Assembly: GCA_017428265.1 (NCBI GenBank)
Contig: JAFRRD010000027.1
Coordinates: 19,209 to 83,208, forward strand
DNA from: Lachnospiraceae bacterium
GTDB lineage: Bacteria; Bacillota; Clostridia; Lachnospirales; Lachnospiraceae
Direction of reading: 5' to 3'
Length of the DNA stretch: 64,000 nt
Both the position numbers and the translations under genes were made by a program. Positions within the stretch are counted from its first letter, which is position 1; every line of letters starts with the position of its first letter. The notes below the pieces were generated by a model. The model worked only from the letters and a program-made list of their open reading frames with translations. It did no database searches and was not told the origin of the DNA. This document shows positions 1,334 through 56,504 of this stretch, one piece after another.

Positions 1334-1371
1334 AAAAAACGCCCCGTACCGCAGGATCTGCAGTACGGGAC
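1334..1371 (-). terminator. rho-independent terminator after the reductase gene
   Basis: Minus strand has a 12-bp stem (one mismatch) with a 3-nt loop, followed by TTTTTTG. It lies about 20 nt after the stop at 1390. Confidence 0.6.
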
Positions 1372-1389
1372 GCTGTCGTCAGATAGGTT

Positions 1390-3444
1390 TTACAGTTTCA
1401 TCGCGACGTCCCAGGCGCCCCAGATGGCGCTGCGAAGGTTGCCGACCTTCTTGCAGTCGCCGATGAGGTGGACGTTCTTGCCTTCCGCCACTAACGGAGC
1501 CGGACGGTAGCCGACCGAGAAGATGACGGAATCCGCCGGGACCTTGGTCAGTCTCTTGTCCTTGCCTTCGACCAGGACGTAGTCCGGGCCGATCTCTTTC
1601 GTCTTGGCTTCCAGGAAGACCGGAATGTTGTTGGTCTTGAAGCAGTCACGCAGGTAGCTGGAGTTCGCCAGGCAGAGGTTCGGCACCGCCATCAGGTCGT
1701 TCATCATTTCCACGATGGCCGGGTGTTTGCCCTTGCGGAACAGGTCGAGCGTGATCTCGCAGCCGGTCAGGCCGCCGCCGATGATGACGACGTTGTCGCC
1801 GACTTCCTTTTCGCCGAGCAGGTACTCGGTTGCGTCCATGGCGCGCTCCGCACCCGGGATCGGGATCTTCTTCGGCGTGGTGCCGGTGGCGATGATGATC
1901 TCGTCAGCCAGCAGGGAGTTCAGGTCCTTCACCTCGGTATTCAGCTTCACCGGGATGTCCAGTTCCTTCATCTGCAGCTTGAACCATTCGATCAGCTTCT
2001 TGTCATTTTCCTTGAAGGACGGGGCCGCGGCCGCGATGAAAATGCCGCCGAGCTCGCCGCTCTTCTCGTAAATGGTCGGATAGTGGCCGCGCAGTTTCAG
2101 CACGCGGGCCGCTTCCATGCCGCCGATACCGCCGCCGATGATGGCAATGCGCTTCGGATGCTTGGTCGGAACGATCTTGTACTTGCCCGACTGCATGGAA
2201 GGCGGGTTGATCGCGCAGCGGCACATGCCGAGCGTGTCGGAGAAATCCTGATCGTTGCCGGTGCCGTTGTGCTTCGACAGGTTGAAGCAGGCAGCGTGGC
2301 AGCCGATGCACGGACGGATCTCTTCTTCCTTGTCCGCCATGAGCTTGGTGACCCATTCGGGGTCGGCCAGGAACTGACGGCCCACCGCCATGGCGTCGAT
2401 GCCGCCGCGGGCGATCGCTGCGGCGCCGTCCTTCGGCTGCATGCGGCCGGCGCAGACCACCGGGATATCCACGAATTTCTTGATGTGCTCAACGTCCTCA
2501 AGGTTGCAGTTGAGCGGCATGTACTGCGGCGGGTGCGACCAGTACCAGGCATCGTAGGTGCCGTTGTCGCAGTTCAGCATGTCGTAGCCGGCATCCTGCA
2601 GGTACTTCGCGGCCTTCTCGCTCTCTTCCATGTCGCGGCCGATCTCGATGTAGTCCTCACCGGGCATCGCGCCTTCGCGGAAGGCCTTGGTCTTGGAAAT
2701 GACGGAGTAACGCAGCGATACCGGGAAGTCCTTGCCGCAGCGCTTCTTGATCTCCTGTACGATCTCCACGGCGAAGCGGTAGCGGTTCTCGAAGGATCCG
2801 CCGTACTCGTCCTTGCGCTGGTTAGTGTATTTCAGGGTAAACTGGTCAAGCAGGTAGCCTTCGTGCACCGCATGCACTTCCACGCCGTCCACGCCGGCTT
2901 CCTTGCACAGGCGCGCGGTCTCGCCGAAGGCGTAGACCATCTGGGCGATCTCTTTCTTCGTCACTTCGCGGCAGGTGACCTTGTCGTGCCAGCGGTTCGG
3001 GAGCACGCTCGGGGCAGCCGTCAGGTATTCGACGTCGATCACGGGGCTCGCGATGCGGCCGAGGACCTTGTTGGTGGCGAGCATCGCCAGGGCATCCGAC
3101 AGGGCCATGGAGCGGCCGAAGCCGGCCGTCATCTGGATGAACATCTTGGCGCCGGTCTTATGCAGCTCGTCCATGAACTCTTTGAGCTTTTTGAATTTCG
3201 CCTTGTTCTGGTACAGCCACATGCGGCCGAGCACGTCGCGGATCGGAGCGATGCCGGGGATGACCAGACCGCAATTGTTGTCGGCGACGTTCTTCAGGAG
3301 CTTTGCCGCCTCCTTGTCAAAGTGGTTGGGTTCCATCCAACCGAAAATGCAGGTGCCGCCCATGGGTGCCAGCACGATCCTGTTCTTGATTTCCAGGTTG
3401 CCGACTTTCCAGGGGGTGAATAATGCTTGGTATTCCTGCTTCAT
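1390..3444 (-). CDS. NADH:flavin oxidoreductase of the 2-enoate reductase / 2,4-dienoyl-CoA reductase / BaiH type (OYE barrel + 4Fe-4S + FAD/NAD(P) domain)
   Basis: 684-aa ORF. It has an N-terminal OYE-like region (NRIVLAPMGG), a CIGCHAACF cysteine motif, and two Rossmann motifs (IIGGGIGG, IIGGGLTG). Confidence 0.85.
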   Translation of the reverse strand: MKQEYQALFTPWKVGNLEIKNRIVLAPMGGTCIFGWMEPNHFDKEAAKLLKNVADNNCGLVIPGIAPIRDVLGRMWLYQNKAKFKKLKEFMDELHKTGAKMFIQMTAGFGRSMALSDALAMLATNKVLGRIASPVIDVEYLTAAPSVLPNRWHDKVTCREVTKKEIAQMVYAFGETARLCKEAGVDGVEVHAVHEGYLLDQFTLKYTNQRKDEYGGSFENRYRFAVEIVQEIKKRCGKDFPVSLRYSVISKTKAFREGAMPGEDYIEIGRDMEESEKAAKYLQDAGYDMLNCDNGTYDAWYWSHPPQYMPLNCNLEDVEHIKKFVDIPVVCAGRMQPKDGAAAIARGGIDAMAVGRQFLADPEWVTKLMADKEEEIRPCIGCHAACFNLSKHNGTGNDQDFSDTLGMCRCAINPPSMQSGKYKIVPTKHPKRIAIIGGGIGGMEAARVLKLRGHYPTIYEKSGELGGIFIAAAAPSFKENDKKLIEWFKLQMKELDIPVKLNTEVKDLNSLLADEIIIATGTTPKKIPIPGAERAMDATEYLLGEKEVGDNVVIIGGGLTGCEITLDLFRKGKHPAIVEMMNDLMAVPNLCLANSSYLRDCFKTNNIPVFLEAKTKEIGPDYVLVEGKDKRLTKVPADSVIFSVGYRPAPLVAEGKNVHLIGDCKKVGNLRSAIWGAWDVAMKL

Positions 3445-3656
3445 ATTACCTCCTTTTTAACATCCGCAGGTGCCTCCTGCGTCTGAATGAGTACTACATT
3501 GTTTTCGAGGTCGACGGATGCGACGCTCCCGGGAATGCGCTTCGAGGCGCCGAACAGATCGCGGACGGTCACATAGCCGGCTTCCTGCCGGATCTGCGCC
3601 GCGAGTTCCATGATCAGTTCACGGTCCGAGGCGCGGTAGACGTTCGAAAGGCACAT
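3441..3656 (-). CDS. cooT: CooT-family nickel-binding protein
   Basis: 71 aa starting MC (Cys2), with DLFG and VDLENNVVLI segments resembling CooT. The start is 1 nt after the His-rich gene stop, and the stop overlaps the reductase ATG (ATGA). Confidence 0.7.
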   Translation of the reverse strand: MCLSNVYRASDRELIMELAAQIRQEAGYVTVRDLFGASKRIPGSVASVDLENNVVLIQTQEAPADVKKEVI

Positions 3657-3657
3657 C

Positions 3658-4113
3658 TTATGCCTCCTCCTGCGGGGCTGCGGCTTCTTCCTTCGGGGCC
3701 GCCAGTTCGGCCGCTTCCATCAGGGCGAGATCCGCTTCCACCATGCGGGCGCAGGCGGATTTGACCTTCTTCGCGGTCGCCGCGTCGCCGGCATCGGCAA
3801 AGCGTTTGGCGAGCGCCGCCAGATCCTCTTCGTGGTGTTTATTGTGCTCCAGCATGTGGGCAAGGAGGATCCGAGCCTTTTCGAGTTCGCCCAGAGTTGC
3901 GGCATCCCTCACCGGCTCATCGTGGTGATGATGGTGCTCGTGATCATGGCAGCAGTGGTCGTGGTCATGATGATGCTCATGGTCATGGTCGTGGCAGCAG
4001 CCCTCATGCTCATGATCATGCTCATGATCGTGGCAGCAGTCTTCGTGATCATGCTCATGTTCGTGGCAGCAGCAATGCTCCCCGTGATGGTCGTGGTGAT
4101 AATAGAACCTCAT
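3658..4113 (-). CDS. His/Cys-rich metal-binding protein (CooJ/HypB-tail-like role inferred)
   Basis: 151 aa. By hand count the first 65 residues contain about 29 His and 9 Cys (CCC, CC, CC, CC blocks separated by HxH/HD runs). The C-terminal half is a helical Ala/Glu/Leu-rich domain. Confidence 0.6.
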   Translation of the reverse strand: MRFYYHHDHHGEHCCCHEHEHDHEDCCHDHEHDHEHEGCCHDHDHEHHHDHDHCCHDHEHHHHHDEPVRDAATLGELEKARILLAHMLEHNKHHEEDLAALAKRFADAGDAATAKKVKSACARMVEADLALMEAAELAAPKEEAAAPQEEA

Positions 4114-4128
4114 GTCTTTCCTTTCTCT

Positions 4129-4198
4129 GTCATCCTGAGCGCAGCGAAGGATCTTCTCGAGAGGATCCTTCGTCGGACTGCGCCCTCCTCAGGATGAC
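4129..4198. repeat. palindromic MITE/REP-like element, copy 1
   Basis: GTCATCCTGAGCGCAGCGAAGGATC...CCTCAGGATGAC terminal inverted repeats. Related copies lie at 9048-9122 and 15884-15962. Confidence 0.8.
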
Positions 4199-4207
4199 AC
4201 GCCTGTG

Positions 4208-4900
4208 TCATTTCTTCCTTCCGAGGTGCATTTCCTTCATGCCCTCGACCTCGTCGCAGACCGGCTTCAGCGTGCAGTGGCTGCAGTCCGTGGGCAGACC
4301 GTCCAGGATGTGCGAGAGGGTCTTCGTGATGTCTTCGACCTTCTTCGCGTTCGGCTGCAGGGTCTTCACAACTGCTTCGTCGGTAATGAAAACGATCTGC
4401 GCGGCCTTAACGCCCTTCACCGCCCTGTACTTTTCGAGGTAGGCGGCGCCGACCGCGGCAAAGTTTATCCCGCGTTTTGCGGCGTCTTTGCTTACCCGGA
4501 CCTGCTCTTCGTAGCTCGTCGAGGAAACGCGGACCATGTAGCCCGTCGGAAACACGTGATAGCGCACGTACTCCATCGAGCGGATCATGTCGTGGCCTTC
4601 GTCATCCTCCGAGATCTCCTCCGTCTGCAGCACGACGATGCGGGCAAAGGCCGTATCCTTCTTCAGTTCCGGAAGATCCCGGCCCAGCAGGAATACCCCT
4701 TCGCCGCCCGGAAGCGCCGACGTGGTCACGCAGGTATAGTTGACGGACGGGCAGCCGGAGCCGCCCAGTTCAAAGGCGGCGTCCCGCTGCATCACAAGCT
4801 CGCTCCGGCCGAGATCCGGCCAGGCGGGCCTTTCCGGCAGGCGCTTCGCGCCGCCTGCCGCGTCCCTTGTCGCATTGATTATCGCGTCGTATAGCTTCAT
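4208..4900 (-). CDS. stand-alone acetyl-CoA synthase (AcsB/CdhC) middle-domain-like protein
   Basis: 230 aa. VRVSKDAAKRGINFAAVG, QIVFITDEAVVKTL and the C-terminal DCSHCTLKPVC resemble Moorella AcsB segments LRVSKDAVAKGFRFKNYG, VTIFTDEAKVKEY and SCVLCQSFAPNHVC. The AcsB segments are recalled from memory. Confidence 0.6.
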   Translation of the reverse strand: MKLYDAIINATRDAAGGAKRLPERPAWPDLGRSELVMQRDAAFELGGSGCPSVNYTCVTTSALPGGEGVFLLGRDLPELKKDTAFARIVVLQTEEISEDDEGHDMIRSMEYVRYHVFPTGYMVRVSSTSYEEQVRVSKDAAKRGINFAAVGAAYLEKYRAVKGVKAAQIVFITDEAVVKTLQPNAKKVEDITKTLSHILDGLPTDCSHCTLKPVCDEVEGMKEMHLGRKK

Positions 4901-4905
4901 TGCCG

Positions 4906-5073
4906 CTAGAACCGGATGTCTGTCTTCTTCCGGTCAAAGATGGTATTGACTCTGCGGTAGGCCCATTCCATGAGCTTCTGATCGAGATTCCAGAAATAGA
5001 CCACGAAAAGCACGATGCACAGGGCCAGCAGGATCCCCAGGACCACCTTCAGTACTTTGAAAAATTCTTTCAT
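4906..5073 (-). CDS. 55-aa single-pass membrane peptide (paralogue of 13109-13330)
   Basis: Own translation, below the ORF-track length cutoff: MKEFFKVLKVVLGILLALCIVLFVVYFWNLDQKLMEWAYRRVNTIFDRKKTDIRF. It lies 18 nt after the activator stop and 5 nt before the next ATG. Confidence 0.5.
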   Translation of the reverse strand: MKEFFKVLKVVLGILLALCIVLFVVYFWNLDQKLMEWAYRRVNTIFDRKKTDIRF

Positions 5074-5091
5074 GCGCTTTTCCTTTCACGG

Positions 5092-5892
5092 TCAGGCGGT
5101 CTTTTTCGCCATCCCTTTCTGACGGGCATATTCCGCTGCGCCGAGCGCACCCATCAGCTGCGGGTCGGTATCCAGGTCGACGACCTTCAGCTTCAGCACG
5201 TGCTCGATGGCTGCCTTCAGGCCGTCGTTCTTCGCGCAGCCGCCGGTCAGGGTAATGGAATCGGTCGCGCCGGCTTTCTTGCTCATGACAAAGCACCTCT
5301 TCGCGACAGCCATCTGGATGCCGGCCGCGATCTCGTTCATGGGCTTGCCTTCGCCGACCAGGGTGATAACTTCGGATTCCGCAAACACCGTGCACTGCGC
5401 GGTGATCGGGATCACGTTCTTCGCGGACAGGGACAGCTTCGAGAATTCAGGCAGGCTCATTTCAAACGAGCGCGCCATGGCTTCGTAGAAACGGCCGGTA
5501 CCGGCAGCGCATTTGTCGTTCATGGCGAAGTTCTTCACGGTGCCGTCGGCATCGATGGAAATGCCCTTGATGTCCTGGCCGCCGATATCGATGATGGCCT
5601 TGACGCTCGGGTTCGTAACGTGCACGCCCATGGCATGGCAGGAGATCTCGGAGATGTTCTCATCCGCGAACGGGACCTTGTTGCGCCCGTAACCGGTACC
5701 GATGAGGTATTCGAGGTCTTCGGACTTGTCCAGTCCGACCTGTTTCAGGACCTCGGCCATCGCGAGCTTCGCGGATTCTTCCGCGTTGATCTTGCTCTTC
5801 ATCGTGGTATCCGCCACGATTTTGCCGTTCTCGTCCACGATCACTGCCTTGGTGTAAGTCGACCCAACGTCGCAGCCGCCGAAATATTTCAT
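5092..5892 (-). CDS. HgdC/BcrAD-BadFG-type ATP-dependent activator (archerase) of HAD/BCR-family enzymes
   Basis: 266 aa. It has GCDVGSTYTKAV and IDIGGQD ASKHA-fold motifs, plus the two cluster cysteines in DKCAAGTG and AQCTVFAES. Confidence 0.9.
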   Translation of the reverse strand: MKYFGGCDVGSTYTKAVIVDENGKIVADTTMKSKINAEESAKLAMAEVLKQVGLDKSEDLEYLIGTGYGRNKVPFADENISEISCHAMGVHVTNPSVKAIIDIGGQDIKGISIDADGTVKNFAMNDKCAAGTGRFYEAMARSFEMSLPEFSKLSLSAKNVIPITAQCTVFAESEVITLVGEGKPMNEIAAGIQMAVAKRCFVMSKKAGATDSITLTGGCAKNDGLKAAIEHVLKLKVVDLDTDPQLMGALGAAEYARQKGMAKKTA

Positions 5893-6021
5893 GATATATG
5901 TTCTCCTTTATGTGATTCATTAATGAAGTGTTATGACCGCGCTCTCTGCCTTCTCCTTCGCCGGGCCGTGCCCGCCTGCACAAGGCACGCCCTCCGGGTG
6001 TCGGGATGACAGGGAAGATCT

Positions 6022-7806
6022 TTACCAGCTGGCGTCGTCCTCGAAGTCCACGAGCGACGGATCGATGGGCTCTTCGCGCATGACCGTGCGCATGTATTCG
6101 TTGACCTTCGCGCGCATGTCCTTGCGGGAAACGGTGCGCGGATCCATCAGGTCGTGTTCGATCCAGATGAGGCGCACGCCGTGTTCTCTCGCCTGATCGT
6201 CAAAGAGGCCGTTCAGCGTGGACATGTTCTTGCAGGAAACGTGCTGGTACATGATGACGATGTCCGGCTTCCAGATCTCGACCTGGCGCCAGAGTTCGGT
6301 CAGCACGTGGTCGTAGCCGCCGTTCGTGTGACGGCGCATGACCATGCGCTCGTAAAGTCTCGCCATGTCCTTCAGGGCTTCTTCGGGATCTTCGGTCTCC
6401 AGCGGCTTCGTGAAGTTCAGGTTCTCCATTTCCACGAGCACGTTGATGCCCCAGCAGTTCGCCAGCCAGTTGGAGAAGTTGGCGTAGTAGTGCGCCGGCA
6501 CGCTCCAGACGATCGCGCGGTGGCGCATCTTGCCGCGCCACGGCTCTTCCTTCTTCGCGTAGGCCTTCATCATGATCTTGTCGACCTTCTTGAAGGTGTT
6601 CAGGATGCGCGGATCAAGGCCGCCGTCCATCTCGTAGTTCCATTTGCGGAACAGTTCGTAGCACGGACCGATCAGCTGTGGGTACGGCGTCTGGTTGACT
6701 TCCCATTTCTGCAGTTCGTACTGCGTTTCCTTGTTGAAACGCTTCATGGCGGCGAAATAGGCGTCCCAGCTCCATTTCGCGCCGGTCTGCTCTTCGATGA
6801 ACCTGATGCAGCCCTTGATGTCGGCCACGGCCGCCTGCATGGAGGATTCGTCCTCGTAGCGGACCGGGAAGCAGAGGTGGTAGGTCGGCAGATCCTTGAA
6901 GCGCCGGCTCGTGTAGGACGAGGCCATAACGGATCCGTCGCAGGGCATCGAGCTGGAAATGAAGCAGGCGCCCATGTGCGGCAAGGCGTCGATGACGCAG
7001 GCGCCGCATTCGGAGGTCGGGACCGGGCAGGTGTCGGACGGCAGACCGTAGCTCTCGACGGCGTCGATGTACGGCATGCAGGCGAGCTGGTCGATCTCGG
7101 AAAGCAGGAACACCGGCATCAGCTGGTACGGGATGCCCACCAGATCCGGGAAGCCGGCCATGATCTGCGCCATAGTCATTTCGTCAAGCAGCACGATCTT
7201 CTTGGAAAGGTCGGTCGAGTTGCCGTTCTTTTCGTCGCTCTTCATCAGGAGCACCAGGTTCTCCGCCACGTAGCGGAAGATCGCGAAGATCAGTTCGTGG
7301 TGCATCTTGAGCGCGTTGCCGCGCAGGCCGAGCGTATTCTTGTCCATGAAGGAATGGCAGCAGAAATAGGAGATCATCCAGCGGTAGTGGACCGCGCCGT
7401 TCAGGGCCGGAATGAGGTCCTTGGAGAAAGTGGAAAGCAGCATTCCCCACATGTGCAGCCATTCGTAGTAGTCGTAGGCCGTGTCCTTGAGGCCGCGCCA
7501 TTCGCGGCGGACCGTGGCCATCTTGCCGTTCCGGTAAAGCTTGCCGAGCTGCTTCTCGCCGTTGATGAGCCAGTCGAGGCGTTCCTCGTTCGTCATCTTC
7601 GCGAACAGGCCGGCTTCCATCTTGGCGCGTTTGCCGAAGGCCTTCCATTCATTGCCCACGGCCTTGGCGACGCCTTTCCAGTCGGTCTCCTTCAGCATGC
7701 CGCCGACGATGCCGCCGACTTCCTTAAGGTTCGCCAGCTGAGCCTTCCAGTCAATATGGTCCTTCATGCGGAAGAATTTCGGATCGGGATATTTGATCTT
7801 AGCCAT
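6022..7806 (-). CDS. 2-hydroxyacyl-CoA dehydratase / benzoyl-CoA reductase family subunit, long form (594 aa)
   Basis: HGD-D-like C-terminal 400 aa with Cys-rich segments (DTCPVPTSECGAC, MPCDGS) and an N-terminal extension of about 200 aa. Paralogue of 11329-13083. Confidence 0.75.
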   Translation of the reverse strand: MAKIKYPDPKFFRMKDHIDWKAQLANLKEVGGIVGGMLKETDWKGVAKAVGNEWKAFGKRAKMEAGLFAKMTNEERLDWLINGEKQLGKLYRNGKMATVRREWRGLKDTAYDYYEWLHMWGMLLSTFSKDLIPALNGAVHYRWMISYFCCHSFMDKNTLGLRGNALKMHHELIFAIFRYVAENLVLLMKSDEKNGNSTDLSKKIVLLDEMTMAQIMAGFPDLVGIPYQLMPVFLLSEIDQLACMPYIDAVESYGLPSDTCPVPTSECGACVIDALPHMGACFISSSMPCDGSVMASSYTSRRFKDLPTYHLCFPVRYEDESSMQAAVADIKGCIRFIEEQTGAKWSWDAYFAAMKRFNKETQYELQKWEVNQTPYPQLIGPCYELFRKWNYEMDGGLDPRILNTFKKVDKIMMKAYAKKEEPWRGKMRHRAIVWSVPAHYYANFSNWLANCWGINVLVEMENLNFTKPLETEDPEEALKDMARLYERMVMRRHTNGGYDHVLTELWRQVEIWKPDIVIMYQHVSCKNMSTLNGLFDDQAREHGVRLIWIEHDLMDPRTVSRKDMRAKVNEYMRTVMREEPIDPSLVDFEDDASW

Positions 7807-7809
7807 TGT

Positions 7810-9012
7810 TTATTCCTCCCCCTTTGCTTCTGCCGCGTGGATCCGTTTGATCTCCAGGGCTTCCACGAAGGCCTGGAAACGGGTGCGGAGCTGTCCGGAG
7901 TTGCGGACGTTGTACGGACGGTCGATCGAGAGCACCGGCCAGCCGTATTCATCGTGCAGGATGTGGCTCGCGAGCGGGCGTTCGAAGGCCCAGAAATCGC
8001 AGAACTTCATCTGCTCGTAGACGATGCCGTCCGCGCCGTATTCACGGGCAAGGCGGTCGGCCGTCTCGCGGCGCTGCGTGATCTTTTCTTCGCTCATGTA
8101 ACGCGCGCATTCGGAGGTCTTCATGTAGTGCCGGACGATCTGGGTGAGGATATCCTCGCCTTCGTTGATCACGATCTCCTCGCGGCCCGGGGTCGAGCCG
8201 TAGCAGTAGCGGTCGGCCACGACCAGGGCGCCGGCATCTTCCAGCAGGCGGGTGAAATCGAGGTCGTCGATCTCACTGCCGACCACGGCGACTCGCGCGC
8301 GGAACTTCGGCTTCTCGTCGGGTTCGCGGTTCCTGATCTCCTCAAGGGTCTCGCGGAGCTTCGGCAGGATGAGCGCCTTCGGGCAGCAGTAGCTTGCCAG
8401 AACGATCACGTGGAATTCGTAGCCGGTGACCGGCGGATTCGGCAGTTTCCTGAGGTTGCCGATCTCGGTGATGATGCGGCAGACCTCGTTGTGCTCCTCA
8501 ACGGCCTTAAGCAGGGCTTCGTCAGAGGTGTCCACGCCGTAGCGCGCCGTCAGTTCATCCAGGAGATGGAGCCGCATCTGGGTGCGCATCTGCTCCACGG
8601 TATAAGTTTCTACCTTATACGGAATGTCACAGTGGCTGACGAAGAAATTCGGCTTCGTGTTGCAGTTCAGGATCTCCATGTGCTCGTAGCAGCGGTTCAT
8701 GGCGGAGCAGGCGTCAACGCCGGCTAACGCGTCCAGGAACTGGTAGCCGCCCTCGATCGCTCTCTCGAGCAGGGACCTGGCGTACTCGCAGGTGTAGTTG
8801 GACATGTAGTAGGTGGCGATATCGATGCTGGCCGTGCGCGGCGCGCGGATGCGCACTGAGAAGGCCTTGCCTACGTTGCAGAGCACTTCCGGCATGTGGT
8901 AGCAGGTATAGCCGACCGCGATTCCTCCCTCCTCCTGCGCCTGCCGGACCAGCGCGTTGTCCGCGTCCTCCAGCAGGTTTTCAAATTCGATCAGGTATTT
9001 GAGATCTTTCAT
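7810..9012 (-). CDS. 2-hydroxyacyl-CoA dehydratase / benzoyl-CoA reductase family subunit (400 aa)
   Basis: MKDLKYLIEFENLLEDADNALVRQAQEEGGIAVGYTCYHMPEVL aligns with the paralogue at 10124. I chose the ATG at 9012, preceded by GGGAGGTCC, rather than the ORF-track start at 9045. Confidence 0.8.
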   Translation of the reverse strand: MKDLKYLIEFENLLEDADNALVRQAQEEGGIAVGYTCYHMPEVLCNVGKAFSVRIRAPRTASIDIATYYMSNYTCEYARSLLERAIEGGYQFLDALAGVDACSAMNRCYEHMEILNCNTKPNFFVSHCDIPYKVETYTVEQMRTQMRLHLLDELTARYGVDTSDEALLKAVEEHNEVCRIITEIGNLRKLPNPPVTGYEFHVIVLASYCCPKALILPKLRETLEEIRNREPDEKPKFRARVAVVGSEIDDLDFTRLLEDAGALVVADRYCYGSTPGREEIVINEGEDILTQIVRHYMKTSECARYMSEEKITQRRETADRLAREYGADGIVYEQMKFCDFWAFERPLASHILHDEYGWPVLSIDRPYNVRNSGQLRTRFQAFVEALEIKRIHAAEAKGEE

Positions 9013-9047
9013 AGGACCTCCCTTCCTAAAAATGTGCATATTCAACT

Positions 9048-9122
9048 GTCATTCTGAGGAGCGAAGCGACGAAGAATCTTCAAATCAAAAGCAGGAAGAT
9101 CCTTCGCTGCGCTCAGGATGAC
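9048..9122. repeat. palindromic MITE/REP-like element, copy 2
   Basis: GTCATTCTGAGGAGCGAAGCGACGAAGAATCTTCAAATCAAAAGCAGGAAGATCCTTCGCTGCGCTCAGGATGAC. It lies between cooC and the HAD-like gene. Confidence 0.8.
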
Positions 9123-9130
9123 AGAATAAT

Positions 9131-9889
9131 TTACAGCAGTCCCATCTTCTGCAGGATCTCCCGGGCGCCGGCGAGGATCGTCGAGTCGTCCGGCAGGTCG
9201 AAGACGCTTTTTCCTTCGATGTCGTTTTCCGCGTGGGCGGGGTCCGGCGGGATGACGGCGACAAGCGGGACGCCGCCGATCTCCGTTTCGGTGATGCGCT
9301 CGGGCAGGAGCACACGGTTCAGGACCGCGCCGACCCAGTCCGCCGCGACGAGGCTGTCCGAGACCTCCTTGATCGTGGAGATGATCTGAATGCCCTTCCG
9401 GCTCTGGTCCGAGACGCACAGAAGATGCGTCACCTTCTCCATGACGCGGCGGTTGATCTGTTCGATGCCCGCCTCGCCGTCGATGACGACGTAGTCGAAT
9501 TCATTCACGAGCAGGCTGATCACCTGCCTGAGATACGTATTGATGGCGCAGTAACAGCCGGCCGCCTCGGGGCGTCCGATCGCGAGGAAGGCAAAGCCTT
9601 TCTGTTCCTGCATGGCTTCGAAAATGCGGAATTTCGCTTCCGCCAGAATGTCCTGCGTATCCTGCAGACCCTCGGTCACGTCCTTCGCGACGCGCAGCCG
9701 GATCTCGTCCAGCGTTTCTTTTACTTCCACGCCAAGAGCCACGGACAGGCCGATGGCCGGATCCGCGTCGATCGCCAGTATTTTCGCCTCAGGATGCGCT
9801 TCCGTTAAAACTCTCACGATGGCGGCAGACAGCGACGTCTTGCCGACCCCGCCCTTGCCGGTCAGCGCGATAACACTAGCCTGATGCAT
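9131..9889 (-). CDS. cooC: CooC/AcsF-family nickel-insertion ATPase (MinD/ParA class)
   Basis: Started at MHQASVIALTGKGGVGKTS (deviant Walker A). The GCYC CxC metal-binding motif is present and an AAGGAG RBS lies upstream. The upstream part of the 326-aa ORF was rejected. Confidence 0.8.
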   Translation of the reverse strand: MHQASVIALTGKGGVGKTSLSAAIVRVLTEAHPEAKILAIDADPAIGLSVALGVEVKETLDEIRLRVAKDVTEGLQDTQDILAEAKFRIFEAMQEQKGFAFLAIGRPEAAGCYCAINTYLRQVISLLVNEFDYVVIDGEAGIEQINRRVMEKVTHLLCVSDQSRKGIQIISTIKEVSDSLVAADWVGAVLNRVLLPERITETEIGGVPLVAVIPPDPAHAENDIEGKSVFDLPDDSTILAGAREILQKMGLL

Positions 9890-9928
9890 GTCAAACTCCT
9901 TGTTTTTTCGGAATTCTTGGTAATATAT

Positions 9929-9957
9929 AAGGTAACACGATTTCCCGATTTCGTCAA
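9929..9957 (-). promoter_or_regulatory. candidate promoter of the cooC-led operon
   Basis: Minus strand reads TTGACG-N17 (ending TGt)-TACCTT, about 35 nt upstream of the ATG at 9889. Confidence 0.35.
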
Positions 9958-10030
9958 TGAAAAAGCGGCCGGAAAAGGACCCCGGGGAGGGGTTTTTTCG
10001 TCTTTCCCCCTTTTCTTTTCGCGCGGGATG

Positions 10031-10039
10031 TGATAAGAT
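10031..10039 (+). promoter_or_regulatory. candidate extended -10 element for the divergent HAD-like operon
   Basis: TGaTAAGAT about 85 nt upstream of the GTG at 10124. A weaker alternative is the TTGACG at 10067. Confidence 0.25.
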
Positions 10040-10123
10040 TTCTCCAGTGGCTGGCGCCGCCTGTTTTTTGACGGCCCAAGAACGTAAAAACGTAAAAATC
10101 CCTATCTCCAAGGAGGTCCCTGC

Positions 10124-11332
10124 GTGCGTGACCTAATCCACATCATCGAATTTGAAGACCTGCTCCAGGAAGCAGGCAACGACCTCGTGCGGCAGGCAAA
10201 AGAAGAGGGAAAACGCGCCCTCGGCTATACCTGCAACTTCATGCCGGAAGTCCTTCTGGACATCCCCGGCTGCTTCTCCGTGCGCCTTCGCGCGCCCCGG
10301 AGCACTTCACCGGACATCGCGACCTACTACATGACCAATCGTACCTGCATGTACGGCCGATGCCTGCTCGAGCGCGCCATGGAAGGCGGGTTCAACTTCC
10401 TCGACGCCGAAATGGCGACCGAGACCTGCACCGTCACCTGCCGCTTCCAGGAGCATCTGCAGCGGATGGACGTCATCCAGAACCCCGATTTCTTCTGCGA
10501 GTTCACCGACGTCCCCTTCAAGAAGAACGAAAACTCCGTCGACCACTACACCCGCCAGCTGCAGGCGCACGTGCTGGACAAGCTGCATGAGCATTTCGGC
10601 ATCGACGTTTCGGACGAAGCGCTGCTTAAGGCCATCGGGGAACACAACGAGCTCTGCCGCCTGATCCGCGAGATCGGCGAGTACCGGAAGCTCGACAATC
10701 CGACCATCACCGGCCGTGAGTTCCAGATCATCCAGCTGGTGACGCAGGTCTGCCCGAAGTACCTCATCATGGATAAGCTCCGTGACATCGCCGAGCAGTT
10801 AAAGACCCGCGAACCCGACGAGAAGCCTTCGTGGCGCTGCAAGGTGGTCCTGGCCGGCTCCGAAGAGGACGATCCGGATTTCACGAAGCTGATCGAGGAA
10901 TGCGGCGCGCTGGTCGTTGCCGACCGCCACTGCTACGGCTCCCTTCCCGGCCGCGAAGACATCGTCGTAAAGGAAGGCGAGACCCCTCTCTACGCGATCG
11001 CCCGCCACTATCTGGAAAACAGCCAGTGCCCGCGCTTCATGGAACAGCACGTCATGCGGGACCGCAAGGCATATCTCGCGAACGTCGCGAAGGAGTACAA
11101 GGCGGACGGCATCGTCATCGCGCAGATGAAGTTCTGCGAATACTGGAGCTACGAGCGCACGATCGACACCGTCGTCCTGAACCGCGACTACGGCATCCCG
11201 GTCTGTTCCATCGAGAAGGAATACGTCAACAACGCCGTCGGCCAGCTGAGGACCCGTTTCCAGGCCTTCGTCGAGAGCATCGAACTCAAGAAACTTGCCC
11301 AGGAGCAGAAGGCATCCGGAGGTGAAGCATGA
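10124..11332 (+). CDS. 2-hydroxyacyl-CoA dehydratase / benzoyl-CoA reductase family subunit (402 aa), paralogue of 7810-9012
   Basis: GTG start after GGAGGTCC. MRDLIHIIEFEDLLQEAGNDLVRQAKEEGKRALGYTCNFMPEVL is collinear with the other copy along its whole length. Confidence 0.8.
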   Translation: MRDLIHIIEFEDLLQEAGNDLVRQAKEEGKRALGYTCNFMPEVLLDIPGCFSVRLRAPRSTSPDIATYYMTNRTCMYGRCLLERAMEGGFNFLDAEMATETCTVTCRFQEHLQRMDVIQNPDFFCEFTDVPFKKNENSVDHYTRQLQAHVLDKLHEHFGIDVSDEALLKAIGEHNELCRLIREIGEYRKLDNPTITGREFQIIQLVTQVCPKYLIMDKLRDIAEQLKTREPDEKPSWRCKVVLAGSEEDDPDFTKLIEECGALVVADRHCYGSLPGREDIVVKEGETPLYAIARHYLENSQCPRFMEQHVMRDRKAYLANVAKEYKADGIVIAQMKFCEYWSYERTIDTVVLNRDYGIPVCSIEKEYVNNAVGQLRTRFQAFVESIELKKLAQEQKASGGEA

Positions 11333-13083
11333 TCTACAAGACCAATGAAGCAAAGGAGATCCGCCTGTTCTCCAAGGGCTGGCTCAAGGATCTGAAGTTA
11401 AAGGAAGCGGCCGCGGCCAAGCTCGAAAAGCTGAAAGCGACCGACTTCAAACAGAAAGCAGCCGAAGCCGCGGAAAAGATCAAAAATCTTGACGCAAAGA
11501 AAGTCGCGCGCGATTTCATTTACGGCAAGCCGCACGAAGAACGCCGCCTGGGCGACCTGTACGTGCCCGGCACCGGCCTCTACAAGCACCGTGAATGGCG
11601 CGGCGTCAAGGACACCATGTATTATTTCAACATGATCTGGCTGTACAACTACGCCCACATGGTGACCGACATCATGAAATACGGCGGGCCTGTCACGGCC
11701 CTGAAAGGCGCCCTGCGCTACCGCTGGATGGGGCAGTGCTACCTCACCGTCATGCACTGGTTCGACCGCGGCCTGGAAGGCACGCGCGGCGAAGCGCTCC
11801 GGGCTTCCGCCTGGCACTACCGCGGCATGGTCAATGAATCCATCCGCCAGTTCATGCGCATGTTCTCCGCCGATAAGCGCTTAAACGGCGGCGAGGCAAA
11901 TGAACTTTGGAAGAACACCATATCCCATGACGAGACCGTTTCCGGCAACATCTTCTACGGCTGGCGCGACCGCATGGACGACGTGGCCCTGCAGATGATC
12001 CCCTACTTCGTCACCTGCCACGTCAACAACCATACCGTGCTGAACTACATCGACGCCGCGCAGTCCATCGGCCTGCCGGGCGACCCCTGCCCGATGTGCC
12101 AGGCCGAGGCCGGCATCTTCGTGCTGAACGACGTCCCGGATTACAGCCCCGTGGTCGTGACCTCGAACGAAGCCTGCGACGGCTCCGTCGGCACCTCCAT
12201 CCTGCAGGACTGGTTCCTCGACCGCCCGCTCTACGCCATGCCGCAGCCCATGCGCTACGACGACCCGCTCGTGCAGAAGCACTGCCAGGAAGAGATCGAA
12301 GGCTGCTGGCGCTTCATCGAGGAGCAGACCGGCCAGAAGATGAACTGGGACGAATACGTAAAGCACGCGGAAGCCTTCAACAAGCTCACCGAATTCGAGC
12401 ATGAGAAATGGGACATCGCCGCGAATACGGATTACTATCCGATCACCGGCGTCGCGCAGGCGCTGTACCGCATCTACTATTCGCAGGACGGCGACCGTGA
12501 CATCTGGCACTTCGTCGACAAGAAAGTCAAGCGCATCATTGAAAAGTGCGTGACGCAGAAGATCAACTCCTTCCCGAAGACCCGCCACCGCGTGATCGCC
12601 TGGAGCTGCGCGCCGCTGTACTATTCGCACTGGTGCACCTGGGCCTACAACTGCTGGGGCCTCAACTGCATCATCAACATGGACTCCCTGATGTTCGACC
12701 AGATGCTGCGCACCGACACCTACGAACACGCCCTCGAAGACCTGACCTGGTTCAACGAGAAGGCGCCCATGCGCGCGATGGCCGTCGGCGGCCACGAGCA
12801 CATCTTCCAGCTGTGGCAGTTCATGGAACGCTTCAACTGCGACATGGTCATGATGTACGACCAGCTGGCGTGCAAGGGCATGCAGGGTGTCCACGGCATG
12901 TTCGAGGACGAATTCCGCAAACGGAACATCCACGCGATCTGGATGCCGCACGCGCTGCCGGATAAGCGCACGGTCTCCCGCCGCGAGATCCGCCAGATCG
13001 TCAACGACTACATGTTCACCGTCATGCACGAAGAACCGCTTGATCCCACCCTGCTGGATTTCGACGACAACGATTCGTGGTAA
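11329..13083 (+). CDS. 2-hydroxyacyl-CoA dehydratase / benzoyl-CoA reductase family subunit, long form (584 aa), paralogue of 6022-7806
   Basis: There is a 4-nt overlap with the preceding gene. It shares the REWRG(V/L)KDT..., RYRWM and C-terminal EEP(I/L)DP..DF(E/D)D..SW segments with the 594-aa protein. Confidence 0.75.
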   Translation: MIYKTNEAKEIRLFSKGWLKDLKLKEAAAAKLEKLKATDFKQKAAEAAEKIKNLDAKKVARDFIYGKPHEERRLGDLYVPGTGLYKHREWRGVKDTMYYFNMIWLYNYAHMVTDIMKYGGPVTALKGALRYRWMGQCYLTVMHWFDRGLEGTRGEALRASAWHYRGMVNESIRQFMRMFSADKRLNGGEANELWKNTISHDETVSGNIFYGWRDRMDDVALQMIPYFVTCHVNNHTVLNYIDAAQSIGLPGDPCPMCQAEAGIFVLNDVPDYSPVVVTSNEACDGSVGTSILQDWFLDRPLYAMPQPMRYDDPLVQKHCQEEIEGCWRFIEEQTGQKMNWDEYVKHAEAFNKLTEFEHEKWDIAANTDYYPITGVAQALYRIYYSQDGDRDIWHFVDKKVKRIIEKCVTQKINSFPKTRHRVIAWSCAPLYYSHWCTWAYNCWGLNCIINMDSLMFDQMLRTDTYEHALEDLTWFNEKAPMRAMAVGGHEHIFQLWQFMERFNCDMVMMYDQLACKGMQGVHGMFEDEFRKRNIHAIWMPHALPDKRTVSRREIRQIVNDYMFTVMHEEPLDPTLLDFDDNDSW

Positions 13084-13108
13084 AGCATCGGCCTGAAAGG
13101 AGAATCTC

Positions 13109-13330
13109 ATGAAAAAAGCAATCGTTAAGAAGTGCCTGAAAGCGCTGTGGTTCCTGCTTAAGGTCGCCGGCTTTGCCTACCTCATCCTCTTCATCGTTTT
13201 CTTCTTCGATCTGGACGGCAAGCTCCTCTACCACGTGGTGGAACCGAACATGAACGAACATTTCAACAAGATGGAGCGTCCGGACCTGACCGGAACGCCT
13301 TACGGTCCGAAAGAACCGGTAAACGATTAA
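13109..13330 (+). CDS. 73-aa single-pass membrane peptide (paralogue of 4906-5073)
   Basis: One TM helix followed by FFFDLDGKLLYHVV, matching YFWNLDQKLMEWAY in the 55-aa peptide. GGAG lies upstream. Confidence 0.55.
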   Translation: MKKAIVKKCLKALWFLLKVAGFAYLILFIVFFFDLDGKLLYHVVEPNMNEHFNKMERPDLTGTPYGPKEPVND

Positions 13331-13349
13331 AATGCACTGCAAATGAAGC

Positions 13350-13371
13350 GGGGCGGCCTTTAGGCCGCCCC
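13350..13371. terminator. bidirectional terminator hairpin
   Basis: GGGGCGGCC-TTTA-GGCCGCCCC sits between convergent genes and is followed by a T-rich tract. Confidence 0.65.
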
Positions 13372-13406
13372 ATTTCTTTCTATCCGTATCTTTCTGTCTC
13401 TTCGCC

Positions 13407-14084
13407 CTAGTCCGGGTAATAGACCGTGATTCCGGCCTGTTCCGGCGTCAGCATGACAAAGCAGTATTCCTCCCAGCCCATTGCCAACCGTTCGGAAGTC
13501 CACGAAACGAAGACGCTGTACAGATAGCCCGCTTCGGGTTCGAAACTGCCCTTCGACATACTGAACAGCCCGCCCTTCTTCCATTCGTATTCGACCCTTT
13601 CCCTTCCGGTCCAGGTATCTTTCTTCACTGCATCCGTTCCAACCACGTCAAGCGGCCAGCGCCAGACCGCGATATTGTCCGCCTTTGCATCACCGCGTGT
13701 CTTTACGGCAAACCAGAACGCAGCAGTATCATCCTCGATCAGGATTTGCGCTGATGCCATCAGATATTCCGGATCCATCCAGACGCTCAACGGCTGCATT
13801 TCACCGTAACGGATGCCGCCCAGAGGAATATTCTCTCTGTATTCGTTTTCCGACAGCCATATGCCGTTATTAAAGCAGCTCCCGATCGCGCAGGCGCCTC
13901 TGGTCAACTTTGTATAGTTCTGCCCCTGCGTTTCTTTATAAGTACTGTAATAGACCGCGGCGCCGGTATCCTCGGGCAGCCTGTCATGAACAGCGTTTAT
14001 GCACAGCATGGTCAGGATCAGTACGGCCATCGTCCCGAAAATGATGAGAATCCCTTTCCATTCATGATCTATCGGTTTCTTCAC
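13407..14084 (-). CDS. membrane-anchored protein, unknown function
   Basis: 225 aa with an N-terminal TM helix (ILIIFGTMAVLILTMLCI) and an extracytoplasmic domain. No family recognised. Confidence 0.5.
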   Translation of the reverse strand: MKKPIDHEWKGILIIFGTMAVLILTMLCINAVHDRLPEDTGAAVYYSTYKETQGQNYTKLTRGACAIGSCFNNGIWLSENEYRENIPLGGIRYGEMQPLSVWMDPEYLMASAQILIEDDTAAFWFAVKTRGDAKADNIAVWRWPLDVVGTDAVKKDTWTGRERVEYEWKKGGLFSMSKGSFEPEAGYLYSVFVSWTSERLAMGWEEYCFVMLTPEQAGITVYYPD

Positions 14085-14129
14085 GGTCCGCTCCTTTCCT
14101 GCTTTTTTGTTTCGGCAAAGCCGATCCTC

Positions 14130-14810
14130 TCAATAAACGTTTTTCCAAGTGAAGACCATATATGCCGGATAGACAAACGTCTCTCCTTTTTTCTCCGCGC
14201 GGTGGATATCCCGCTTTGTATAGCTGATCCATATACGGACGAAAACGCCTTCCTCCTGCGCGTCCAGCCTGGGTTTCACATCGTCACCGATCCTCGCATC
14301 CGGCATGACCCGGATAATGATCTGTTCAAAATCTCTGTCGATCCGCAGTTTCTGCGAACCGTCCTCTTCTTTCGGAAAATATTCGACGATCTTCCCCGTG
14401 GCAAAGCCGCCTCTTTCTTCGTTCAGTTCCCGGACGACTTCACGGATGCGGAAAAATGCATAGATCCCGGCCAGAACAAGAAAGACAATGAGGACCCGCA
14501 GGACTGCCTGCTTCACTGAGCGCTTCTCCCGCTGACTGCCGTATTCGGCAACGGCCTGCAGGGAGCTTTGCTGCTGCACGGCCGGGTCTTCATCCGGCTC
14601 CCGGCGTTCCCCGTCGATCAGCTCTTTGATATCGACCTTGTAGTACTCCGCCAGCTTCATCAGGGTCTCCAGGTCCGGGATCGTGGCGCCGGTTTCCCAG
14701 CGCGACAGGGTTTTCGAGGAGACAAATAGTTCCTCCGCGGCCTGCTCCTGCGTCAGTCCGCGCTCTTTTCTGAGTTCCCTCAGGAACGCACTCATTTTCT
14801 GCGTTTCCAT
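14130..14810 (-). CDS. XRE-family HTH transcriptional regulator with a membrane-spanning segment
   Basis: LRELRKERGLTQEQAAEELFVSSKTLSRWETG is an HTH_3 motif. A central TM helix (VLRVLIVFLVLAGIYAFF) follows. Confidence 0.8.
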   Translation of the reverse strand: METQKMSAFLRELRKERGLTQEQAAEELFVSSKTLSRWETGATIPDLETLMKLAEYYKVDIKELIDGERREPDEDPAVQQQSSLQAVAEYGSQREKRSVKQAVLRVLIVFLVLAGIYAFFRIREVVRELNEERGGFATGKIVEYFPKEEDGSQKLRIDRDFEQIIIRVMPDARIGDDVKPRLDAQEEGVFVRIWISYTKRDIHRAEKKGETFVYPAYMVFTWKNVY

Positions 14811-14980: not shown

Positions 14981-15016
14981 TTTCTTACGATTTTCTCCTG
15001 ACAAGTGAGGTTTGCC

Positions 15017-56439: not shown

Positions 56440-56504
56440 GGTTTCCTCTCTTTCCTACCCATACGCGCATTATACACCTACTGTCACTTTTTCACCCCAG
56501 TCCA

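Follow-up and report, generated by a model that had tools for sequence, protein, structure and literature searches.

Benzoyl-CoA reductases (BCR), 2-hydroxyacyl-CoA dehydratases (HAD) and double-cubane cluster proteins (DCCP) constitute a superfamily whose reactions are among the most strongly reducing in biology and which, by current understanding, relies on iron-sulfur (Fe-S) clusters only. Among its characterised members, the beta subunits of HAD retain only three cluster Cys residues and the catalytic cluster of the BCR subunit BzdO is likewise ligated by three Cys (PMC11971306). A second group of proteins relevant here serves the maturation of carbon monoxide dehydrogenase (CODH), in the operons of which CooC is general and CooT and CooJ are sporadic (PMC13056359). 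The nearest published analogy for a combination of such components is the operon of the putative isoprene reductase (IsrA) of Acetobacterium wieringae, in which HypA and HypB do not serve their usual client and a dependence on nickel has been inferred (PMC10134865). The present analysis concerns a gene cluster in a 64-kb stretch of contig JAFRRD010000027.1 of a Lachnospiraceae bacterium (the whole stretch is hereafter referred to as the window), in which homologues of the reductase/dehydratase superfamily are encoded together with homologues of the nickel maturation proteins.

The cluster consists of twelve genes. In the order of transcription, the minus strand encodes a CooC-like ATPase, a 400-aa and a 594-aa subunit of the HGD-D family (pair 1), an activase, a 55-aa membrane peptide, a protein resembling a domain of acetyl-CoA synthase (ACS), a His/Cys-rich protein, CooT and a reductase of the old yellow enzyme (OYE) type, while a second HGD-D pair and a 73-aa peptide are encoded divergently. 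The cluster is conserved and apparently undescribed in the literature, a full-text search of which returned no description of it. Since some of its proteins have homologues known otherwise only from the assembly of the CODH/ACS nickel centres, its composition suggests a metalloenzyme system of a new type.

The cluster as a whole is best read as an ATP-driven, membrane-tethered low-potential reductase with a CooC/ACS-like accessory pair, a reading that we regard as modestly probable. We have high confidence in its architecture and electron path, according to which the activase would spend ATP to push a low-potential electron into a double cubane of the small subunit, and the electron would pass on to an open [4Fe-4S] cluster of the large subunit, where a substrate that is hard to reduce would be reduced or radical-dehydrated. 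The small peptides would tether each heterodimer to the membrane, possibly via the N-terminal extension of the large subunit, and the OYE-type enzyme would either reduce an alpha,beta-unsaturated carbonyl (enone or enoyl) product or supply electrons from NAD(P)H to the system. The CooC-type ATPase would build a metal centre on three Cys residues of the ACS-like protein, by analogy with the action of AcsF on ACS, and this centre would be the dedicated redox partner of the system; in rumen and gut Clostridia, CooT and the His-rich protein with its DUF8180 domain would deliver the metal, with nickel as the most probable one, to CooC. That the ACS-like protein is the client of CooC appears to us evenly balanced, and the case for nickel as the metal comes close to that balance from below. 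The most specific form of the proposal is tentative and rather unlikely to hold in every part. In this form, an Fe-S centre that contains nickel or is matured with it would be assembled on the ACS-like protein by the CooC/AcsF-type ATPase, with CooT and DUF8180 as suppliers, and would be the obligatory redox or catalytic partner of a widespread clade of membrane-tethered, archerase-driven double-cubane reductases.

Public gene calls for the same contig were taken from a metagenome assembly (ENA ERZ28654133, scaffold_621), and families were assigned by Pfam and NCBIfam scans of the window proteins. Eighty loci were fetched around relatives of the ACS-like protein and the twelve window proteins were mapped onto them. 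Locus counts are given for the 48 species-level loci with at least 9 kb upstream and at least 3 kb downstream of the ACS-like gene, in which CooC, the activase, the HGD pairs, OYE and the 55-aa and 73-aa peptides were counted by tblastn, and CooT and DUF8180 by family hidden Markov models. Gene tables were inspected for the related loci L002-L006 and for the divergent loci L089-L093, the ACS-like proteins of which share only 21-45% identity with one another or with the window protein. Hydrophobicity was calculated on the Kyte-Doolittle scale in 19-mer windows.

The closest genomes to the window are two metagenome-assembled genomes of rumen Lachnospiraceae, RUG10682 and RUG13475 (98-99% identity). 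The hosts of the 80 loci comprise rumen and gut Lachnospiraceae, Pseudobutyrivibrio, Oscillospiraceae, mouse-gut Dorea, Eubacterium, Acutalibacteraceae and horse-gut Limimonas, with many Butyrivibrio among them, including the cultured MC2021, XPD2006, NC2007, VCB2006, FCS014, INlla14 and CB08, and B. proteoclasticus P6B7. CooC was found in all the 48 species-level loci, the activase in 47 (at 84-99% identity), both subunits of pair 1 in 46 and OYE in 45, followed by CooT (43), the 55-aa peptide (41), the second pair (37-39, with the 584-aa subunit in 37), the DUF8180/His-rich protein (37) and the 73-aa peptide (35). The HGD genes always occur as small/large pairs in the mapped loci, and the CooT and DUF8180 genes are adjacent in 51 of the 55 loci having both. 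The preliminary description of this DNA had named conserved synteny in related genomes as a test of its proposal; the arrangement is indeed kept in about 46 of the 48 species-level genomes and extends to the lineages that are 21-45% identical.

The divergent loci delimit the part of the cluster that is common to all lineages. Locus L090 carries, in this order, genes for the ACS-like protein, a CooC-like protein, HGD proteins of 390 and 482 aa, an activase, a 49-aa peptide and two family III CoA-transferases, and L091 those for a CooC-like protein, HGD proteins of 401 and 509 aa, an activase, a 51-aa peptide, the ACS-like protein and a methyltransferase. In the rumen locus L092, a second HGD pair, a 67-aa peptide, an HSP90 and a CooC-like protein are followed by HGD proteins of 399 and 665 aa, an activase, a 78-aa peptide, the ACS-like protein and an OYE; the HSP90 gene (HtpG-like, L092 3015-4904) thus lies between the second HGD pair and CooC. 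Locus L093 begins with a short-chain dehydrogenase/reductase and an epimerase and continues with a CooC-like protein, HGD proteins of 390 and 483 aa, an activase, a 51-aa peptide, the ACS-like protein, an 815-aa Fer4/Pyr_redox_2/nitroreductase protein, a thiolase and an AMP-ligase. In the Clostridia loci, in L092 and in L093 the ACS-like gene is followed by one for an Fe-S flavoprotein, which is an OYE in the former two and the Fer4/Pyr_redox_2/nitroreductase protein in L093. OYE is replaced by this other Fe-S flavoprotein in L093, and it is missing in L090 and L091. Genes for CoA-transferase or CoA-ligase occur in the distant L090 and L093. The universal core is made up of the CooC-like protein, the small and the large subunit, the activase, the membrane peptide and the ACS-like protein, within which the association is closest between CooC and the ACS-like protein. 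CooT and DUF8180 supplement this core in the rumen/gut Clostridia branch only.

The pair is also found apart from the HGD genes. In L089, ACS-like and CooC-like genes stand beside beta-oxidation genes with no HGD gene nearby; here (L089 10001-18274, on a 1.1-Mb contig of another lineage) the two genes lie downstream of a sigma-54 two-component system and are followed by an ABC ATPase and a full beta-oxidation set with enoyl-CoA hydratase, acetyl-CoA hydrolase/transferase, 3-hydroxyacyl-CoA dehydrogenase and thiolase genes. Further HGD-less loci are L077 (OYE, CooC, ACS-like), L038 (CooC, ACS-like, CooT) and L081 of the Acutalibacteraceae (3996-14404), which has OYE, CooC, ACS-like and OYE genes with no HGD pair and no activase, alongside aconitase-X large and small subunits, an M28-like protein and an amidohydrolase. 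The co-occurrence of CooC and the ACS-like protein in L081, L077, L038 and L089 argues for the ACS-like protein as a client of CooC, and the arrangement in L081 suggests that the pair can work with a flavoenzyme alone. In a Lachnospiraceae locus (L057 8352-11280), CooC, the activase, the ACS-like protein, an 83-aa DUF8180-like protein and CooT are encoded with no HGD or OYE gene within 10 kb, which makes this locus a remnant or else a split system.

The assignment of the first gene of the minus-strand operon to the cooC type, made in the preliminary description, is upheld. Pfam and NCBIfam give only generic MinD/CbiA models for the CooC-like protein, which carries the deviant Walker A motif GKGGVGKT; its best solved relative is CooC1 (3kje, 2.4e-14, against 2.3e-8 for MinD), and its C112-Y-C114 is aligned onto the C-Y-C of CooC1. 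The CxC motif is invariant in 64 homologues and is kept in the distant loci.

The 230-aa protein had been described as an ACS fragment. Its homology to an ACS domain was borne out. The Pfam match (PF03598, 6e-4, 20.2 bits) stays below the gathering score of 24, NCBIfam CdhC (PRK04456) matches at 1.9e-8 and the CdhC equivalog scores 24.6 bits for a cut-off of 356; the profile of the family matches ACS residues 298-482, the middle domain, at 1.8e-7, and all the 23 significant Foldseek matches of the AlphaFold2 (AF2) model (predicted local distance difference test, pLDDT, 85) are ACS or CdhC, the best at 4.8e-10. The term fragment does not apply, the protein being a full-length member of a large stand-alone family. 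In an exhaustive profile search the family comprised 713 clusters at 50% identity (154 with E <= 1e-30), and at least 1368 relatives were counted at 90% clustering. Nearly all the members have about 235 aa, and a scan of 185,579 species-representative genomes located the protein in 213. A C-terminal Cx2Cx5C motif (C206, C209, C215) is invariant across the whole family. The protein has neither the fourth cubane Cys nor the A3 domain and ends at residue 230. Any equivalence of the three Cys to the ACS cubane ligands C506, C509 and C518 is one of position only; a search with the tail gave no support, and the profile alignment stops at ACS residue 482, about 20 residues ahead of the first cubane Cys. 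One family member (P0384, 308 aa) is fused to a C-terminal 2x[4Fe-4S] ferredoxin domain, which supports a redox role for the ACS-like protein.

CooT and the His/Cys-rich protein were both recognised in the preliminary description, and both assignments stand. CooT matches PF10133 at 7.2e-14, with 52.3 bits for a gathering cut-off of 27, and its Cys2 is invariant in 35 homologues. The neighbouring gene encodes 33 His and 10 Cys in 151 aa, with 29 His and 9 Cys in the first 66 residues, and the C-terminal 65 aa correspond to the helical domain PF26551 (DUF8180). The DUF8180 relatives all begin with His-rich tracts (median 13 His per open reading frame, ORF). The public call for this gene (L001 13610-14149) covers the C-terminal 65 aa only, and a spurious antisense ORF of 113 aa is called over the His-rich half; the 151-aa reading is taken to be the right one because the relatives begin with the same M-[KR]-[YF]-Y-H-H-D-H-H-G-E-H. 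The adjacency of CooT and the His-rich protein in the rumen/gut branch is the ground on which the metal is argued to be nickel.

Several points weigh against this reading, in particular against nickel. The CxC sites of the CooC family bind Zn in vitro as well, and the related MinD-type ATPases Nbp35 and ApbC carry Fe-S clusters. DCCP, furthermore, is not known to need factors of the CooC/ACS-like kind for its assembly in Escherichia coli. BzdNO also matures in E. coli without them (PMC11971306), and the CooC/ACS-like pair was for these reasons ruled out as a general maturation factor of double cubanes. The Cys-Gly-Cys nickel motif is missing from the ACS-like protein, no His is universally conserved beside the three Cys in its family, and the Cys tail alone, searched against the PDB sequences, returned coiled-coil noise only and no ACS match; no nickel-binding site could be identified in the sequences of the large subunits or of the ACS-like protein. 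An Rfam scan of the window gave no riboswitch, hence no NiCo riboswitch, and no nickel transporter is present among the window ORFs. CooT and DUF8180 occur in none of the five deeply divergent loci, nor in L081 and L077. The single activase gene, with no CoA ligase or transferase in the window, is unlike the true benzoyl-CoA reductases. Since only chaperone homologues point to nickel, a nickel dependence of the system is inferred. The earlier suggestion of a nickel-dependent or nickel-gated enzyme, or of recruited nickel chaperones, is therefore retained in part: a conserved link between BCR/HAD-type enzymes and homologues of CODH/ACS maturation proteins exists, and a visible nickel site does not.

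Several of these points would be accommodated if the CooC-like and ACS-like proteins formed an assembly or electron-transfer module for iron-sulfur rather than nickel, which we consider possible though not likely. The CxC of the ATPase would then bridge or deliver a [4Fe-4S] cluster, like Nbp35/ApbC, and the ACS-like protein would be a three-Cys Fe-S carrier, with electrons passed to the activase or the flavoprotein; the role of CooT and the His-rich protein would be confined to one lineage and would lie in the handling of a different metal or in metal buffering. Such a role fits an ACS-like protein that keeps Cx2Cx5C and no nickel motif, the ferredoxin-domain fusion of one member, distant loci that keep the core without CooT and DUF8180, and the lack of a nickel transporter or riboswitch nearby. 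However, CooC1 is a far better match of the ATPase than MinD, with the CxC placed exactly on the nickel-binding motif, and the adjacent CooT/His-rich pair, present in 37-43 of the 48 loci, is the canonical nickel-delivery set. The patchy occurrence of this pair is no argument against nickel, as CooT and CooJ are sporadic in CODH operons also (PMC13056359).

The reading as a low-potential reductase draws on the HGD-D proteins. PF06050 matches the 400-aa protein at 1e-90, the 402-aa protein at 1.4e-87 and the 594-aa protein at 1.9e-35 (over residues 246-571), and the match of the 584-aa protein comes from the precomputed annotation of the contig. The two pairs are paralogous, as had been noticed from the sequence at first, with 52.6% identity between the small and 34.7% between the large subunits. 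The curated models place the proteins outside the described equivalogs: bzdN scores 75 and 92 bits (cut-off 454), bcrC 51 and 56 (cut-off 421), HadC 75 (cut-off 700) and the DCCP model NF040772 137.7 and 134.7 (cut-off 350), and all the Bzd/Bcr models of NCBIfam stay far under their cut-offs. The best solved relative of the small subunit is BzdN (8s02_B, 1.1e-20, against 3.9e-16 for HadC). Residues C37, C75, C102, C270, C302 and C338 of the 400-aa subunit align to C36, C73, C100, C263, C293 and C327 of BzdN, the ligands of its [8Fe-9S] double cubane (PMC11971306). Among 61 homologues of the 400-aa subunit, the conservation of these six Cys is 98-100%; in 50 homologues of the 402-aa subunit they are invariant, and the distant small subunits of L090 and L091 have them too. 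Both small subunits are accordingly predicted from their sequences to carry an [8Fe-9S] double cubane.

The core of the AF2 model of the 594-aa subunit (pLDDT 80, predicted template modelling score 0.85) matches HadB (3o3m_A, 1.2e-11), BzdO (8s02, 1e-10), DCCP and MbdO, in a range from 1e-11 to 5e-9; it is preceded by a helical N-terminal extension of about 190-245 aa, of which residues 1-190 are helical and have no structural match. C260, C289 and C525 (C254, C283 and C515 in the 584-aa subunit) are the only Cys common to both paralogues and the distant relatives, and C260 and C289 align with two DCCP Cys in a phmmer alignment. The large subunit looks like the holder of a three-Cys catalytic [4Fe-4S] cluster with a presumably open site, as in BzdO. 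An additional metal site formed by C243, C267, C333, C451 and several His was considered as well; these residues are invariant in the near family only and are lost in the paralogue and the distant relatives, and the site was dropped as a universal nickel site. The large subunits end in DF[ED]D, three variable residues and a terminal Trp. The tails observed in the window large subunits, L090 and L091 are ...DFEDDASW, ...DFDDNDSW, ...VFDDSKDW and ...DFEDDLAW. To our knowledge no such acidic Trp-ended tail exists in HadB or BzdO, and it may be a docking element.

The activase matches PF01869 at 2.3e-57 and TIGR00241 with 218.6 bits (cut-off 125.4). Its C128 and C167 are invariant among the homologues and are taken to be the cluster-bridging pair of the HgdC type. 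There is one activase gene in the window and one activase match per related locus examined; because the cluster has only this one, the activase is presumably a homodimer that serves both pairs.

The HGD pairs could alternatively be classical radical dehydratases, converting a 2-hydroxyacyl thioester into an enoyl product that is then saturated by the OYE-type enzyme, in a reductive branch like that of FldABC/FldI and FldZ of Clostridium sporogenes; the handling of CoA would fall to the ACS-like protein or take place elsewhere. PF06050 in both subunits, HadB as the best fold match of the large subunit, an activase of the single-gene HgdC type, the invariant HxxH of the OYE and the two family III CoA-transferase genes in L090, which are typical of HAD clusters, all agree with such a pathway. 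It is nevertheless unlikely, since the small subunits keep six double-cubane Cys like BzdN where the HAD beta subunit keeps three (PMC11971306) and are closer to BzdN than to HadC; moreover, neither the window nor the gene tables of L002-L006 include a CoA-transferase or a 2-hydroxyacid dehydrogenase. Of the earlier designation as HAD/BCR-type enzymes, the superfamily membership holds; because the small subunits are BzdN-like with six Cys, the enzymes look more like reductases than dehydratases, and within the proposed mechanism BCR-like reduction is favoured over HAD-like dehydration.

The membrane tethering in the proposed reductase would be provided by the two small peptides, which contain the only strongly hydrophobic 19-mers in the cluster (residues 7-25 of the 55-aa peptide, Kyte-Doolittle 3.15; residues 15-33 of the 73-aa peptide, 2.49). 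The 73-aa peptide is a paralogue of the 55-aa peptide and has an FFDLDGK-type motif in common with relatives. Peptides of 49-78 aa occupy the equivalent position in L090-L093, and those translated from L090 and L091 have the same [FWY][FW]xLDxK motif right after the membrane helix. Biohydrogenation of fatty acids, as in Butyrivibrio, was considered as a substrate idea in view of the membrane anchoring and the rumen hosts; no support was found for it.

The OYE/FeS/FAD assignment of the 684-aa reductase is corroborated by matches to PF00724 (1.7e-56) and PF07992 (2e-30) and by a [4Fe-4S] motif, C379, C382, C386 and C410, that is invariant in 66 homologues. H191 and H194, with HxxH spacing, are likewise invariant in these homologues, and we take them to be the pair that binds the activating carbonyl of the substrate. 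The best solved relatives are 2,4-dienoyl-CoA reductase (DCR, 1ps9, 9.5e-53) and 2-naphthoyl-CoA reductase (NCR, 6qkg, 1.6e-52, full length), and by sequence the enzyme belongs to the 2,4-dienoyl-CoA/2-enoate/naphthoyl-CoA reductase class. It is not a BaiCD or BilR equivalog, with 347 bits (cut-off 825) and 345 bits (cut-off 750) in the respective models.

The coordinates of the features are listed in Table 1. The unit comprises two divergent operons at 1338-13372, each closed by a strong terminator. The twelve genes are at the positions first assigned to them, apart from the start of the 400-aa gene, which is the ATG at 9012 and not the upstream TTG at 9045; the His-rich gene is the only one on which the public gene calls of this contig differ. 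The gaps on the minus strand, previously given as 0-130 nt, range from a 4-base overlap to 129 nt. The promoters of both operons presumably lie in the intergenic region between them, in which a scan with the sigma-70 consensus gave no promoter-like site.

Table 1. Features of the cluster and their coordinates in the window
Feature	Coordinates	Strand	Basis or remarks
Intrinsic terminator	1338..1374	-	17-bp stem, 10 G-C pairs, T run; 16 nt past OYE stop codon
684-aa OYE-type FMN/[4Fe-4S]/FAD-NAD(P)H reductase	1390..3444	-	PF00724, PF07992
71-aa CooT homologue	3441..3656	-	PF10133
151-aa His/Cys-rich protein, C-terminal DUF8180	3658..4113	-	Composition, PF26551
230-aa stand-alone ACS middle (A2) domain homologue	4208..4900	-	Profile and AF2 fold
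55-aa single-pass membrane peptide	4906..5073	-	Hydrophobic 19-mer
266-aa HgdC/BcrAD-type ATP-dependent activase	5092..5892	-	PF01869, TIGR00241
594-aa large (catalytic-type) HGD-D subunit, pair 1	6022..7806	-	PF06050
400-aa small HGD-D subunit, pair 1, BzdN-like	7810..9012	-	PF06050
252-aa CooC/AcsF-type MinD-family ATPase	9131..9889	-	Walker A, CooC1 match
Divergent intergenic region, 234 bp	9890..10123	.	Position only
402-aa small HGD-D subunit, pair 2, BzdN-like	10124..11332	+	PF06050
584-aa large HGD-D subunit, pair 2	11329..13083	+	PF06050 in precomputed annotation
73-aa single-pass membrane peptide	13109..13330	+	Hydrophobic 19-mer
Bidirectional terminator	13350..13372	.	9-10 pair stem, 9 G-C, both strands; 20 nt past 73-aa gene

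The usual partners of these proteins had been reported as missing, and neither cooS and acsB nor hydrogenase, urease and CoA-transferase genes are present among the larger window ORFs or in the 4 kb before the window start. A neighbouring cooS/acs operon to which the nickel-type genes might belong had been raised as an objection; none was found in these regions or at the inspected loci, and because the genes outside the cluster vary between the genomes with inspected gene tables, the nickel-type genes are assigned to the cluster itself. That CooC, CooT, the His-rich and the ACS-like proteins serve a CODH/ACS encoded elsewhere, their adjacency being due to chance or co-regulation, is hence very improbable, for although the closest characterised relatives of all four are in CODH/ACS maturation or in ACS itself, their genes are interleaved with those for HGD, activase and OYE in one terminator-bounded operon, the arrangement recurs in 46-48 of the 48 species with differing flanks and in lineages 21-45% identical, and no cooS or acsB occurs within the 64 kb here or within 10 kb in the loci with inspected gene tables.

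The cluster is flanked by two genes for PhzF-family isomerase-like proteins (window 15005-15880; L001 17354-18139, beyond the window start) and XRE-type helix-turn-helix regulators, and genes for a rubredoxin and a DcuC-type transporter are found immediately beyond the window; none of these flanking genes is in the inspected gene tables of L002-L006. Between positions 34000 and 56000 of the window, the G+C content drops to 40-48%, from 55-61% in the surroundings, and this low-GC island holds a phage-integrase fragment, an rve transposase (55223-56098), a tyrosine integrase (56312-57187), an Rrf2 regulator, a sigma factor, a two-component system and an OpuA-type betaine ABC transporter. A radical-SAM/SPASM gene (52348-53703) beside ABC-transporter genes gives part of the island the look of a cluster for a ribosomally synthesised and post-translationally modified peptide. 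The island is probably a horizontally acquired element.

The cluster represents a BCR/HAD/DCCP system with a new conserved accessory module and probably gives the rumen and gut microbiome a reductive activity that has gone unrecognised. If the ACS-like protein is the nickel-dependent partner envisaged in the most specific proposal, the Coo machinery would gain a third class of clients besides CODH and ACS, and the BCR/HAD/DCCP superfamily its first nickel link; a confirmed nickel centre would mean categorically new chemistry for that superfamily. The cluster would either extend nickel biochemistry to a new enzyme class or reveal a non-nickel job of the Coo machinery, and the stand-alone family of ACS-domain proteins may bear on the origin of the A-cluster domain of ACS. 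In public annotations, the ACS-like protein is labelled as 'carbon monoxide dehydrogenase' and the HGD proteins as '2-hydroxyacyl-CoA dehydratase'; surveys of CODH that count CooC, CooT or CdhC-like genes would wrongly pick up this system. Experiments are feasible, as cultured Butyrivibrio and B. proteoclasticus carry the cluster.

Comparison with the characterised members of the superfamily brings out what is specific to the cluster. Class I BCR of the Bzd type (BzdNOPQ; 8S02, 8S1T, 8S2R; PMC11971306) resembles it in the HGD-D heterodimer, with a BzdN-like six-Cys small and a BzdO-type three-Cys large subunit, and in the ATP-driven activating module of the ASKHA type. Class I BCR, however, has two ATPase subunits (BzdP/BzdQ or BcrA/BcrD) where the cluster has one, and the cluster adds the N-terminal extension and acidic Trp-ended C-terminus of the large subunit, the membrane peptides and an obligate CooC-type ATPase with the ACS-like protein, while it includes no CoA ligase or ferredoxin gene; no CoA ligase was found in the window as a whole. 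The HAD systems HadBC/HadI, HgdAB/HgdC and FldBC/FldI with FldZ share the PF06050 heterodimer, the single-gene HgdC-type activator with its bridging Cys and the HadB fold of the large subunit, and they offer a precedent for the pairing with an OYE-type Fe-S flavoenzyme. They differ in having three instead of six small-subunit Cys, in their CoA-transferase and 2-hydroxyacid dehydrogenase genes, which the window lacks, and in the absence of CooC, the ACS-like protein, CooT, the His-rich protein and the membrane peptides. DCCP with DCCP-R (6ENO, 7YYL) has the same six-Cys [8Fe-9S] signature and an activase of the homodimer type, and its substrate need not be a CoA ester; it is a homodimer with the double cubane as the active site, whereas the system here is heterodimeric, with a double cubane that probably relays electrons. 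The SAO/double-cubane locus of Haft and Gwadz was considered too and is a different system.

The nickel maturation of CODH/ACS provides the parallels for the accessory proteins, namely the CooC-type ATPase with its Walker A and CxC motifs, the Cys2 of CooT, the His-rich protein beside CooT and an ACS homologue as the likely client, as in the AcsF-ACS pair. In contrast to CODH/ACS operons, there is no CODH and no full ACS here, the client would be a middle domain with Cx2Cx5C, and the genes are embedded in an operon for a radical enzyme. CooJ is a coiled-coil protein with a His-rich nickel-binding tail at the C-terminus and is encoded next to cooT and cooC. The protein described here, encoded beside CooT, has a His-rich tract and a helical domain as well, but its tract lies at the N-terminus and its domain is DUF8180.

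Two systems resemble the cluster in the combination of its parts. The anaerobic naphthalene pathway, with NCR (6QKG) and a BCR-like tetrahydronaphthoyl-CoA reductase, also joins an OYE/[4Fe-4S]/FAD enzyme to class I BCR-like reductases in the stepwise reduction of a conjugated system, and among solved structures NCR comes closest to the 684-aa protein over the full length; that pathway, however, belongs to other organisms and another habitat, has CoA-ligase and carboxylase genes not present here and is without nickel-chaperone or ACS-like genes. The putative isoprene reductase operon of A. wieringae, for its part, has chaperones of the Hyp type and not of the Coo type and is without HGD-D, activase and ACS-like proteins, but, like the cluster described here, it places homologues of nickel chaperones in the operon of an Fe-S/flavin reductase.

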